Source of the DNA: Octopus vulgaris
Taxonomy: Eukaryota
Direction: 5' to 3'
DNA: 64,000 nt
Assembly (NCBI GenBank): GCA_951406725.2
Contig: OX597826.1
Coordinates: 47,678,001 to 47,742,000 of the forward strand
The notes under the pieces are model-generated. The model had not been told where the DNA came from, did not search any database, and saw only the letters and a list, made by a program, of their open reading frames with translations. The translations under genes and the position numbers were made by a program. Below are positions 8,663 through 54,560 of this stretch, piece by piece. How positions within the stretch are numbered: position 1 is the first letter of the stretch; every line of letters begins with the position of its first letter.

Positions 8663-8849
8663 CGTGCTGGTGCCACGTGAAAAGTACCGAGTACATTCTG
8701 TAAAGTGGTTGGCATTAGGAAAGGCATCCAGCCACAAAAATCATGTCTGAGTACACAATGGAACATGGTGTAGTCCTCTGGTTTGCCAGCTCTGGTCAGA
8801 CCATCCAACACATACTAGCATGGGAAACAGACATTATCTGATGATGATA

Positions 8850-22062: not shown

Positions 22063-22550
22063 ATACAGGACGTTACAAAACGTAAACAACTTGAAATACG
22101 AAAACAACATGAAATGTGAAAGCAACTTGGGTATGCGAACAACGTGAGAAATAAGTGGAAAACAAGACAAGTAACATAAAGAACGACCCTTCATCAGTTG
22201 TTGCTGTTCATCTACTCCACATTTCGAGCAATTAACAACAATATGAGGCCTCGAAAAGCAGTTGCTCCTGTGAACCAAAATAAAATTTGGGATTTTGCGG
22301 AGGGTCAAAGTTGGTAGCAAAAACAGGACAGTGGAGACATACAACAAACCAAACGAAAACATACATGGAGTGCCGTTTGACCAGACGCGGTAAGGTAGCG
22401 AACGCTGGAGGAACATTCTTTGACAAGAGAAAAGATAGGAGAGGTGGCAGATAAGAATGCGTCTGGGCTGTGCGACAGATTGAAGGAAAAGAAAGATGAT
22501 CACGTGAAGAAAAGATGGACGATGGTCACGTATGAGCAACGAGCGAGAGA
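22063..22550 (-). mobile_element. non-autonomous repeat next to (TA)n carrying a rearranged hammerhead (Penelope-like by inference)
   Basis: Partial second copy at 22826-23070; related copy at 44430-44620. Confidence 0.6.
22182..22248 (-). ncRNA. candidate pseudoknotted hammerhead ribozyme (non-I/II/III strand order)
   Basis: CCUCAU-A-UUGUUGUU-AAUUGCUC-GAA-AUGUGG-(11 nt)-AGCAACAA-CUGAUGA-A-GGGUCGUU. All three stems are in register with the core. Confidence 0.65.
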
Positions 22551-22825: not shown

Positions 22826-23070
22826 GTACAGGACGTCACTAAAGGTAAACAGCATGAAATACGAAGTCAAACTTGGGTATTCGAACAACGAGAGAAACAA
22901 ATCGAAAACAAGACAGGTAACATGAAGAATGACCCTTTATCAGTTGTTGCTGTTCATCTACTCCACATTTCGAGCAATTAACAACAATATGAGGCTTCGA
23001 TAAACAGTTGCCCCCGCGAACCAAAATAAGATATGGGATTTTTGCGGAGGGTCAAAGCTGGAAACAAAAA
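22826..23070 (-). mobile_element. second copy of the 22.1-kb element (core reads CUGAUAA)
   Basis: Direct alignment to 22063-22325. Confidence 0.8.
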
Positions 23071-25017: not shown

Positions 25018-25470
25018 CAGTCTGTTCTTGGACTACATATTGTTCCGTTCTTGGATTGCATGGTGGTCCGCTCTTGGATGATTTGGGGACTATATATCTA
25101 TCAGTTAGTTGCTGGACATTCCTGGACGATATATTACTCCGTTCTTAGACAGTTCACAGATTACATATCAGTCCGTCCTTAGATGGACTACATATCGGTC
25201 AGTTCTTGGATGAGTCTTGGACTGCATATGAGTCAGTTCTTGGACATTTTTAAGATTACATGTTGGTATGTTCTTAGTTCATAGACAACAAATCGGCATG
25301 TTTTTGGAGATTTCTTGGACTACATATTGCACAGCATTTGGTTAGTTCTTGAACTACTCATCGGTCCATTCTTTGATAGTTTTTGAACTACATAGTGATC
25401 TGTTCTTGGCTGGTCCTTTGACAATATATCGGCTCGTTCTTAGACAGTTTTATCATATCAGTTTTTTCCT
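25018..25470. repeat. degenerate minisatellite, ~23/34-bp units (ttcttggactacatatcggtcag..)
   Basis: Recurrent ttcttgga and actacatat words, roughly 13-15 units. Confidence 0.8.
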
Positions 25471-26247
25471 AGAAGTTGCCAACTCTTTCCTCAAACTTTG
25501 TCAATTATTTGAGAAATGGTCACTGCGAGTTGTCTCTAACGCAGAACCTCTTAGAAAAATTTTGCAAAACGAAACAAAACCTGCTACCTAGTCATCGGGG
25601 ACAAACCCACTAGCACCTGAAAGGTATCTGAGTTTTCTTTATATTTTACGGTGAAGCCCGTCAGAATTTCATGGACCATTCTTCGGCACTGCACACCCTG
25701 GACCGATGTACCAGTTGAACCAGGCTCTACAATTATAACCCCTCTGCAAGAGTTACAATAAAGAATCGAAGGAATTGACTGGTGCTTTATTTATCAACCC
25801 CAAAAGGATCAACAACAAAATCGGCTTCAACGATATTTGAACGCAGAGCAGTGTATACAATAGAGGCAAATTCATTCTATTCAATACTGTAGCAACTCTG
25901 ATAATTCCCTGCTTTATTTGAAAATCCACATCTATATCTGAAGAAAGAATAAATCTAAATGAGATTTTTGGTCAATCTCGTTTGGTATATGACCGATTGA
26001 TATGCTGTTTATTTATTTATATTAGCTGATCTGTAATACTTGTTAATGTTGTTGCTATTTATCTCCAGGTTAGCACTGGCAGAGTAGACCCCTAGTCAAA
26101 CACAGTCCACTCTTGACCATCCATTCTATTGTATGTCACTGTCAGTAACAGAAACAATTTGTAGAAAAAAGGTCAGGGTACTTTAAAGTTGTTTCCCTTG
26201 CTCCTAAAACCCAAAGTTAGAAAAGTGTGTGAACCAGAAACCATTAA

Positions 26248-26885
26248 GAAGAACAACAAACTTCCTGTGAGCGATGAAAAGTGGAACGGCTATTGGGAGA
26301 TGACTACAGACTTATCAGGGTTCCAGAGACTCTTTCCCATCCCAGTTATGAAAAAAAATAGACATTTTAATGTGGTGTGAAAGAAAGAAAGTTGTAAATC
26401 TAGTCGAGTTAATGGCTCCCCATGAAGATAACATGGACGCCACTCGGGTTCGAAAGATTGACCCTTATGCAAACCTCCTCGAGGAATGTGAAGACACAGG
26501 ATGGAAAGCGGAGATTTTCCAATCGAAGTCGGATGTAGGGAGTTTGTTGGACACAGTGTGAGACGACTGTTGTTATCGTTAGACCTAACTCATCGTAAAG
26601 TTAATACCACCATGACCGATATCCAAACAACAGTGGATATGGCTAGACACTGGATTTGGTTAAAAGAAGACGATGAACGGTGGCTAGAAGTATATTGAGC
26701 TGTATTTAATAACCAGTTGATCTAGCCAGCGGGAACTCATATCAGTGAGGGGGCCTGTGCGCATTGATGCCGTCGAGAGGTAGGCTCCGAAACGGCGCGC
26801 ATTTTCTCCTGATGACCCTATACACATGCTGGCATCCAGTATGCGGCGTTCTAGACTGGTTGCATTTGCATGTGCAAGTTGTTTT
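26248..26885 (+). pseudogene. Hero-like (REL endonuclease) LINE 3' end plus structured 3' UTR
   Basis: DILMWCERKKVVNLVELMAPHEDN..RK..Y.NL.EEC...GWKA / FPIEVGCREFVG.S...ARHWIWLK across frameshifts; stop at 26698. Confidence 0.85.
26768..26820 (+). ncRNA. candidate pseudoknotted hammerhead in the Hero 3' UTR
   Basis: GCCGU-C-GAGAGG-UAGGCUCC-GAA-ACGGC..UUUCUC-CUGAUGA-CCCUA. Stems III and I are in register; stem II is imperfect. Confidence 0.55.
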
Positions 26886-27144
26886 CAAAACGTCAGTTTG
26901 TAGAAAAAAGAGCAGAGTACTTTAAAGCTCATAAAACCCAAGGTTAGAAAAGTGTGTGAACCAAAAAACATTAACTTTCGTGAATAGGATAACGCTGTGC
27001 CTTACATAAGATATTAGGGTATTATTTGAGAGGATATGGTTGCTATTCCTGGGTAGAAGAACTACAGTATGTATATAAATATATATATATATATATATTG
27101 TTATATTTAGGAATGGTCATATTGCCAGTTTAGCCAATACGTAT

Positions 27145-36800: not shown

Positions 36801-37990
36801 GGCGGCGAGCTGGCAGAAACGTTAGCACGCCGGGCGAAATGCGTAGCCGTATTTCGTCTGCCGTTACGTTCTGAGTTCAAATTCCGCCAAGGTCAACTTT
36901 GCCTTTCATCCTTTCGGGGTCGATTAAATAAGTACCAGTTACGCACTGGAGTCGATATAATCGACTTAATCCGTTTGTCTGTCCTTGTTTGTCCTCTCTA
37001 TGTTTAGACCCTTGTGGGTAGTAAAGAAATAGGTATTTCGTCTGCCGTTACGTTGTGAGTTCAAATTCCGCCGAGGTCGACTTTGCCTTTCATCTTTTCG
37101 AGGTCGATAAATTAAGTACCAGTTGCGCACTGGGGTCGATGTAATCGATTTAATACCTGTGTCTGTCCTTGTTTGTCCCCCCTGTGTTTGGCCCCTTGTG
37201 GGTAATAAAGAAATACGTATTTCGTCCGCCGCTGCGTTCTGAGTTCAAATTCCGCCGAGGTCAACTTTGCCTTTCATCCTTTCGGGGTCGATAAATTAAG
37301 TACCAGTTGCGTACTGGGTCGATCTAATCAACTGACACCCCACCAAAAGAAAAAAAACTTTCGGGCCTCGTGCCTAGAATAGAAAAGATTATTAAACTCG
37401 ATTTAAGGCGGCGAGCTGTCAGGAGCGTTAGCACACCGGGCAAAATAATTAGCGGCATTTAGCTTTCATCCTTTCGGCGTCGATAAATTAAGTACCAGTG
37501 AAACAGTTGAATCGATGAAATCGTCTTGTCCCCTCCCCTCCCCTCAAATTTCAAGCCTTGTGCTTATAATAGAAAGGATTATTAAATCCGATGTAAGGCA
37601 GTAGGTTAGCAGAATCGTTAGTGGCATCTTGTCCGTCTTTATGTTCTGAGCTCAAATTCTGCCGAAGTCAGCTTTGCTTTTCATCCTTTCGGAGTCAATG
37701 AATTCACAACCAGTGAAACTCCGGGGTCAATGTAATCGACTTAACCCCTCCTGTAAAGTATTAGGCTTTGTGCCAAAATTTGAAACCAATATTAAAGATA
37801 ATACCTTGAGGCGAGGCGTTAAAGCGGCATTTCGTTCATCTTTGAGTTCTGAGTTCAAATTCCGCCGAGGTCAGCTTTTCCGTTCATCCTTTCGAGGTTG
37901 ATAAAACAAGTACCAATTGAGTACTGTGATAGATATAATCGATTTACCCCATCTCCCAAAATTGCTGGCCTTATGCCAGAATTTGAAACT
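36801..37990 (+). mobile_element. head-to-tail array of SINE family B units
   Basis: One headed unit, then headless ~185-bp units starting at 37032 and 37217, then further older copies. Confidence 0.9.
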
Positions 37991-53801: not shown

Positions 53802-54560
53802 CATCTGTTTTCCACACTGGCATGGATTGGATGGTTTGACTGAAAACTGGTAAGCCGAGGAGCTGCACCAGGTTCCAATCTGATTTGGTATGGTTTCTAC
53901 AGCTGGATGCCCTTCCTATCACCAACCACTCCAAGAGAGTGTAGTGGGTGCTTTTTATGTGCCACTGGCATGAGTACCAGTTACAAAACACCAGCATCAG
54001 CCACGACTACAATCTCACTTTGCTTGATGGTATATCACCCAAGGTTTTGGTCACTTGTCACTACTTCCGTGAGGCCCAGTGTTCAAAGGGTGCTTTTTAT
54101 GTGCCACTGGCACGAGTCACAACTACGATTTCACTTGGTGTGATGAGTCTTCCCCAGCACTGCATATTGCTCAATGTTCAAAGAGAGCTTTTTTACATGC
54201 CACCACCGGCACAAGTGCCAGTTGCACAACACTGATATCAGCTATGACTACAATTTCAGTTAGCTTGAGGGGTTTTCTCAAGCTCCACATATCACCCAGC
54301 ATTTGAAGGGCACTTTTACATTCCACTTGCTCAAGTGCCAACTATGCAACACTGGCATCAGCCATGACTACAATCTCACTTGGCTTGAGGGGTCTTCTGA
54401 AGCTCCACATATCACCCGACATTTGAAGGGCGCTTTTACATGCCACTTGCACAAGTGCCAATTATGCAACACTGGCATCAGCCGCAACTTTGATTTCACT
54501 TGGCTTGATAGATCTTTTCATGCACAGCATATCACCAAAGGTCTCAGTCATTTGTCATTG
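53802..54560 (-). mobile_element. family C element with a 5' tandem array of about five ~100-140-bp units
   Basis: gcttttWaYRtgccac motif recurring at about 53950, 54092, 54188, 54310 and 54430. Confidence 0.8.

Follow-up and report, generated by a model that had tools for sequence, protein, structure and literature searches.

Does the motif that follows the endonuclease frame of a decayed LINE copy at this octopus locus represent a genuine ribozyme, and, if so, what would it do for the element? A sequence-only reading of the window (the whole 64,000-nucleotide stretch of Octopus vulgaris DNA analysed here) had placed a rearranged hammerhead in the 3' UTR of a Hero-like LINE. We find that the motif is a real, conserved hammerhead variant in an unreported setting, and that the order of its blocks is itself already published as type SGC.

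The insertion and its parts occupy the following positions in the window.

26246..26891, + strand: 5'-truncated, decayed copy of a LINE family with a restriction-like endonuclease (ends by BLAST against other copies)
26246..26698, + strand: 3'-terminal part of the single ORF, now broken, from the endonuclease domain (three-frame translation against the intact frame of copy L063)
26880..26893, + strand: 3' end of the insertion, ~120 nt after the predicted cut and without poly(A), the presumed start of reverse transcription

The window copy is 646 nt long and 86–89% identical to 39 other best matches (the best 40 of 2540 candidates were scored). The protein end of the element has 20182 candidates in the genome (the best 150 were scored), marking it as a high-copy repeat. 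The stop codon of the element lies at 26696–98, 76 nt before the predicted cut. Young copies have open frames of 1100–1175 aa, the frame of L063 being 1175 aa. The sole Pfam match in the intact frame is a reverse transcriptase (RT) domain (RVT_1, E 5.7e-19). Characteristic motifs in the ORF also point to a zinc finger at the N-terminus, a CCHC knuckle and a nuclease of the restriction-like type (PD..E). One protein among the matches, 79% identical, carries an Octopus label.

An RT together with a restriction-like nuclease is the layout described as common to the clades CRE, R2, R4, NeSL and HERO (PMC4640811). HERO elements share with this one the single ORF with RT and C-terminal nuclease, and their insertion is described there as mostly non-site-specific, with some microsatellite targets. 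The insertion flanks of our element are likewise varied, and several are (AT)n. Dispersed insertion fits HERO, and the label 'Hero-like' rests on layout and insertion; no HERO-named protein occurs among the matches listed (86 + 120 proteins).

Several further features of the element and its surroundings were recorded. A direct repeat of ~90 nt (78% alike) flanks the window copy at 26155–26247 and 26894–26974. L005 (235 nt), L223 (62 nt) and L014 (~50 nt) likewise have long duplications at their flanks, and most of the 65 loci checked have none; such repeats are possibly rare, very long target-site duplications. A GGAAAGAC-type motif is found six times in the 5' leader (L063 5120–5280), five of them at ~20-nt spacing, and recurs downstream of the ribozyme motif in two distant relatives, L102 and L112; these repeats are perhaps protein-binding sites. 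One locus (L067) holds two element copies in opposite orientation within 9.5 kb. The window also contains a degenerate repeat of ~23 nt and multiples upstream of the element (25020–25460), as well as tandem arrays of 184-nt (36848–37333) and 120-nt (54209–54536) units.

The core of the motif consists of three blocks, enclosed by an outer helix.

26712..26716, + strand: 5' arm of the outer helix, pairing with 26856–60 (5/5 pairs in this copy)
26769..26780, + strand: block S, with a stem III strand, the GUC triplet, the predicted cut after 26774 and a stem I strand
26783..26796, + strand: block G, with a stem II strand, GAAA and a stem III strand
26803..26818, + strand: block C, with a stem I strand, CUGAUGA and the 3' arm of helix IIa

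The core had been read correctly. GUC with C26774, GAAA (26789–92) and CUGAUGA (26809–15) lie exactly where they had been placed; stem III pairs GCCGU (26769–73) with ACGGC (26792–96) at 5/5 positions, and stem I pairs GAGAGG (26775–80) with UUUCUC (26803–08) at 6/6, two of them G-U. Of the two outer helices proposed earlier, ACCAG/CUGGU holds in this copy (5/5 pairs). The other, gccagc/gctggc, is perfect here, but most copies differ at 26727 and use another pairing register. The proposed stem II, CCUA/UAGG, does not stand: it depends on a minority C-to-T change at 26819 that most copies do not have. No Rfam family matches in the window at gathering scores. Single-strand folding recovers only the nested helices, with unremarkable z-scores for the window copy (-1.78), L063 (-0.38) and L084 (-1.09) and strong ones for L090 (-4.2) and L109 (-4.5).

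To explore how far the motif is kept, an alignment of 52 endonuclease-domain proteins was used to collect 75 metagenome loci and 2 genome-collection loci, mostly 30–57% identical; the viral collection gave 2 weak matches only. The two genome-collection loci are probably stray animal DNA. Two bacterial genome assemblies with both elements and motif (L160, L161) probably represent contamination by animal DNA. A descriptor search located the S-G-C core in 28 of the 77 loci. Among the 69 related 3' regions that extend 150 nt or more downstream, 27 have the order with intact stems. The reverse strands gave 1/69 and the coding regions 0/54, and 50 dinucleotide shuffles averaged 0.26, which puts the motif far above chance. 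A relaxed descriptor raises the count to 31/69 (reverse strand 0, shuffles mean 0.2). It leaves 38 of the 69 regions without the motif, several of which look cut short or decayed by eye. In one branch (L119–L134) the motif is present ~540–640 nt downstream in decayed form. On a quick version of the tree (56 rows, with matches below 90 aa left out), the motif is found on most main branches.

The full junction described below could be followed in 28 loci, namely 27 relatives and L063 (L097 ends too early), and removal of 7 near-duplicates left 21. In these 21 distinct loci, stems I and III each pair in 103/105 cells. A helix formed between a third strand and the strand preceding GAAA (IIb) pairs in 84/84 cells, and another, between an upstream strand and the strand following CUGAnGA (IIa), in 82/84. 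The covariation counts observed in I, III, IIb and IIa were reached by 0 of 5000 permutations, and sliding the registers drops pairing to 27–60%. A conventional stem II pairs in only 25/84 cells, below the permutation mean of 30.1. Because portions of stems I and III were required by the descriptor, which also picked the upstream registers, controls were added. In 20 of the 21 loci the junction scored better than its upstream 100 nt did when shuffled 300 times (p<=0.05). When 13 of the loci were aligned with MAFFT blind to structure, pairing across stems I, III and IIb reached 92.1% of cells and included 38 double changes, a level that 0 of 500 shuffles reached; IIb alone pairs in 89.6%. This check covers I, III and IIb; the registers of both IIa and IIb had been picked by a pairing search. 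The conventional stem II pairs in 33% of cells on the same alignment (187 of 500 shuffles were as high). It was rejected, as it pairs at chance both in the relatives and on the structure-blind alignment. In three of the 21 loci (L089, L093, L107) a conventional stem II of 4 bp, offset by 0–2 nt, would also be possible.

The catalytic core is complete: CUGAnGA, GAAA and NUH are present with stems I and III in register. Several of its details were not imposed by the search. G16.2-C15.2 occurs in 21/21 loci and G10.1-C11.1 in 20/21, with position 7 free. When the positions concerned were freed, U16.1 and a base other than G at position 17 were found in 25/25. The C3-G8 tertiary pair is present as C-G in 19 of the 21 loci, U-A in one and U-G in one, and the swap to U3-A8 is seen in L112, L114, L153 and L155; this swap is a natural hammerhead covariation reported to be active in vitro (PMC3088659). 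These unforced signatures may be read as signs of selection on the catalytic core. The order of the blocks and the covariation of their stems in relatives support the view that the rearranged hammerhead is kept in the 3' regions of a LINE lineage, and, judged from sequence, the motif very probably adopts a hammerhead-type fold.

The unusual feature is the second stem, which the earlier reading had called imperfect; it is actually split over a four-way junction. In most copies (30 aligned from the octopus genome), a conventional stem II is impossible because a run of C precedes GAAA and another follows CUGAUGA. Two upstream G-runs were predicted as the partners from this family alone and then tested on the relatives, with the results given above. 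The additional strands in the window copy are listed below.

26731..26733, + strand: 5' arm of helix IIa, pairing with 26816–18 directly after CUGAUGA
26736..26749, + strand: hairpin of the four-way junction (5/5 pairs)
26750..26755, + strand: third strand, supplying G10.1 and pairing with 26783–88 before GAAA to form stem IIb (6/6 pairs)
26757..26762, + strand: arm of the I-II helix, pairing with 26797–26802 (sequence and single-strand fold)

The 5' to 3' order is IIa arm, hairpin, third strand, I-II arm, S, G, I-II arm, C and IIa arm. Few bases, if any, are left over where helix IIa, the hairpin, IIb and the core come together in the four-way junction. The third strand provides the stem II of a hammerhead, which would stack under G12-A9. 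A junction hairpin of at least 4 pairs was found by pairing search in 24 of the 28 junction loci. The I-II helix joins the far ends of stems I and II and has 5–10 bp in 17 of the 21 relatives and 3 bp in 4, in a register chosen by search. In the window copy it runs into stem III over a 6-nt bulge. Such a bulge, of 6–7 bases, characterises the branch that holds the window family, and in 18 of the 28 loci the connection from stem III to the I-II helix is made by a three-base bulge and tandem G-A pairs, which we take to be a kink-turn. For stems I, II and III to be linked at their far ends, a sharp bend would be required. Helix IIa has decayed in the window copy (3 bp with a 2-nt offset, compared to 4 bp in L063), and this copy may be dead. 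Copies differ in the length of the G-run that belongs to both the hairpin and the third strand (L063 4942–4946 versus 8679–8684), a difference that could shift the register of the junction.

The order of site, GAAA and CUGAnGA was named type SGC by Eckert et al. in 2023, who describe five examples that cleave (PMC10085705). Type SGC (HRIMA-1 and variants) has the same block order as our motif, all core bases and a short linker between stems I and II, as well as a helix that binds the other sides of stems I and II near the far end of stem III (PMC10085705). However, in type SGC a stem II strand directly follows CUGAnGA, while here it lies upstream of block S; the four-way junction between A9 and G10.1 is also particular to our motif, as is an I-II helix that joins stem III on both strands, through the kink-turn-like loop (18/28) or the bulge. 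Starting from the SGC wiring, the motif is obtained by a closure running from stem II to block S and an opening between A9 and G10.1. The motif thus works like SGC, and it is not filed as SGC because its block C is not unbroken (25/84 cells). In the permutation scheme of Eckert et al., CUGAnGA is assumed to be inseparable from its stem II strand, the known alignments having at most 1–2 inserted bases there (PMC10085705). Some change is tolerated at this position, since natural hammerheads with one unpaired base between A9 and G10.1 have been described (PMC4209133). Hammerhead variants with additional helices are mentioned, with three papers cited, in another source (PMC13725137).

The same arrangement is found in a second repeat family of the window.

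22185..22306, − strand: repeat with the same S-G-C order and a split stem II (30 copies aligned)

In the 30 copies, IIa pairs in 169/180 cells, IIb in 170/180, III in 151/180 and I in 159/180, while a conventional stem II pairs in 58/180. The two motifs had been described as unrelated. This is true of their sequences, yet both have the split stem II, and the 22-kb family is more likely to share ancestry with one of these LINE lineages than to have arisen independently. No ORF was found in the aligned copies of this family (4942 candidates). A second copy, with a changed core, lies at ~22931–23053 on the minus strand of the window, and some members have nearby inverted partial copies.

What such a ribozyme could do is suggested by the arrangement of long copies. 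Among 20 stretches fetched for long or paired frames, seven show a ~3737-nt unit placed after a partial copy in head-to-tail order. No junction query was involved in finding these seven; their junctions are seamless and, one substitution aside, identical to the base, with upstream parts of ~240–1980 nt. A junction query, which yields a query-biased set, returned 30 loci (including those seven, and one likely duplicate pair), all 30 gapless. Their upstream parts range from 25 to >1549 nt, and none ends at 120 nt, the position of the cut. The upstream motif in a tandem lies ~320 nt before the first in-frame Met. Head-to-tail order is also seen in relatives: the start of the next ORF lies downstream in L088, L102 and L112, and in L109 two copies of the motif are separated by 3643 nt. 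To assign the motif to a '3' UTR' is only a convention, since within a tandem it precedes the following ORF as well. The accompanying guess of a self-cleaving or ligating module fits the tandem structure.

Among 95 distinct insertion ends, none has poly(A). The ends scatter over 0–11 nt of the start of the next unit, and the case they make for internal priming is slight because just three run more than 5 nt into it. Three copies (L182, L184, L185) begin 25–26 nt before the junction, inside a short inverted repeat that is a possible pause site.

Derivatives with internal deletions, whose breakpoints differ, retain both ends and the partial tandem (for example L174, L175, L178, L186, L190, L191), in units of ~0.7–1.5 kb. 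A deleted unit of ~1.25 kb (L063 5918 joined to 8402) was noted among the deepest contigs of four probable-RNA runs (X1–X4) from one study; these are contigs whose RNA status is guessed and which show no start, end or strand, and no pile-up of ends is listed for the runs. Its breakpoint was not seen in the genomic loci checked. One X1 contig goes once round the deleted unit plus ~25 nt, bridging cut and junction, and is not evidence for a circle because a tandem transcript would give the same.

More direct traces were sought at the predicted cut, using a pattern of the 20 bases after the cut preceded by four non-matching bases. It matched 6 loci, all starting exactly at the base equivalent to 26775. 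Five lie in unrelated flanks, and the sixth (L195) is joined to an internal part of the element, as judged by eye. The same pattern shifted to -6, -3 and +6 gave 0, 0 and 0 loci, with control 20-mers that are equally common (36–38 of 59). Six of six at one named site of four would arise by chance ~2 times in 10,000 under equal rates, on small numbers. A seventh such copy (L209) was the one among 30 young copies chosen by their last 120 nt, of which the other 29 run through the cut. The bond after C26774, predicted from the sequence alone, is the exact start point of these seven genomic copies. All seven have T just upstream, either as a non-templated base or as a target preference. None of 30 aligned copies has an indel at the cut. 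In the 22-kb family the cut-site pattern, searched without control positions, gave 1 match, a short fragment. The starts at the predicted bond may be taken as an indirect sign of cleavage, and the motif probably cleaves in vivo.

We consider it fairly likely that the conserved rearranged hammerhead with split stem II cleaves and circularises as the template for reverse transcription. In the proposed scheme, a transcript would run through the upstream partial copy and the full unit, and both ribozymes would cut, releasing a 3.7-kb monomer. The ends of the monomer would re-anneal, since they are the halves of one ribozyme held by ~20 bp (IIa, IIb, III and the I-II helix), and would be sealed either through the reverse reaction or by a host ligase. 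The element protein would then nick the target and prime ~120 nt downstream of the joint. Copying would proceed round the circle and could stop anywhere, giving truncated or more-than-unit copies, the latter of which would restore two ribozymes; on a template that is cut rather than joined, copying would run off after 120 nt. The priming site is 120 nt from the 5' end of a cut-to-cut linear RNA, so long copies need ends that are joined or bridged. A circle explains the seamless junctions, the upstream parts of any length, the renewal of two ribozymes, the short copies at the cut site and the fact that deleted forms survive. That a covalent circle is the main template is a proposal we would put at slightly better than even.

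A close rival is a nicked ring held by base pairing alone, in which the RT primes 120 nt from the 5' end and jumps the nick, with no covalent circle formed. It would explain the same tandems as well as the seven copies stopping at the cut. R2-type enzymes copy across non-continuous templates, the join in L195 between the cut site and an internal part of the element could be such an event, and the T upstream of all seven cut-site copies is what a non-templated base would give. However, template jumps usually leave added or lost bases, and the cut is free of indels in 30/30 aligned copies; we regard the nicked ring as unlikely.

The two other alternatives fit worse. The fold might serve only as a docking site for the element protein, cleaving incidentally or not at all, with the tandems produced by uncut read-through or linear end-to-end jumps. 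The young copies that run through the cut (29/30) and the loss of a conventional stem II agree with such a role, and in a Penelope-like element hammerhead cleavage is reported to be dispensable in vitro (PMC11167929). Docking does not predict starts at the scissile bond (6 versus 0, 0, 0), however, nor the U3-A8 swap, the exclusion of G at 17 or a G10.1-C11.1 pair supplied by a third strand, and it appears distinctly improbable. That the ribozyme only trims the transcript 5' end as in R2, with an inactive downstream copy and a linear RNA, is very hard to credit: the upstream motif does lie before the first in-frame Met, and in R2 and L1Tc the ribozyme is known to sit at the 5' end (PMC6765202), but trimming predicts upstream parts ending 120 nt before the junction, which 0/30 do, and the ribozyme half upstream of the cut would be lost in each round.

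The circular scheme has a precedent, having been proposed earlier for Penelope-like elements (PMC4209133). These elements resemble ours in their partial head-to-tail tandems with a hammerhead in the repeat, and in an internal RT start with a proposed circular template for more-than-unit copying (PMC4209133; PMC11167929). In one Penelope-like element, internal priming has been demonstrated, and no RNA ends were seen at the cut (PMC11167929). They differ in carrying a telomerase-like RT and a GIY-YIG nuclease, while the element here combines an R2-type RT (RVT_1 in Pfam) with a restriction-like nuclease. The hammerheads of their pseudo-LTRs are minimal type I motifs, often dimers, in contrast to the self-contained permuted ribozyme described here (PMC4209133; PMC11167929). 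Retrozymes are non-autonomous hammerhead retroelements with circular RNAs, and the deleted derivatives resemble their small non-coding, hammerhead-bounded units (PMC4918200, PMC7229834, bioRxiv 10.64898/2026.07.22.740005). Animal retrozymes use type I hammerheads and are linked to Penelope-like elements (bioRxiv 10.64898/2026.07.22.740005), whereas the partner here is a restriction-nuclease LINE. R2, which shares the protein layout of our element, and L1Tc also free the element RNA from a longer transcript by a ribozyme. Theirs is of the HDV-like class, lies at the 5' end and makes one cut, leaving a linear template primed at its 3' end (PMC6765202), and in each of these respects our element differs.

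Taken as a whole, the broader reading is that an entire lineage of R2-like, autonomous LINEs replicates through a ribozyme-closed circle, by means of a hammerhead topology outside the six proposed permutations (opened at A9/G10.1, with a four-way-junction clamp and a kink-turn cage) whose build would favour religation, and that the deleted derivatives and the 22-kb family are its retrozyme-like passengers; we hold this full picture to be evenly balanced between right and wrong. The literature searched, with Repbase Reports and most subscription journals outside it, yielded no description of a hammerhead in HERO or other restriction-nuclease LINEs, or of a tandem structure in HERO. Nor did it yield a four-way junction at hammerhead stem II (the supplementary figures of Eckert et al. 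may hold related folds), a precedent for a break between A9 and G10.1, or a paper describing a circular copying route for this kind of element. In the account of Eckert et al., type SGC occurs only in metatranscriptomes, with none in genomes of known organisms although RefSeq was searched (PMC10085705).

If the present reading is correct, the permutation rules of the best-studied ribozyme would be extended at a bond thought to be unbreakable, and non-circularly permuted hammerheads would be present at high copy in animal genomes, of which that RefSeq-wide search reported none. The circular-template idea, put forward in 2014 for Penelope, becomes directly testable with the young intact copies, the predicted cut base and the natural compensatory variants. 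An RNA module that both cuts and closes itself, in partnership with an R2-type enzyme, would also be of interest for RNA circularisation and gene-insertion tools. For the LINEs themselves, R2-like elements would gain a second replication route, circular and internally primed, that is convergent with that of Penelope elements.
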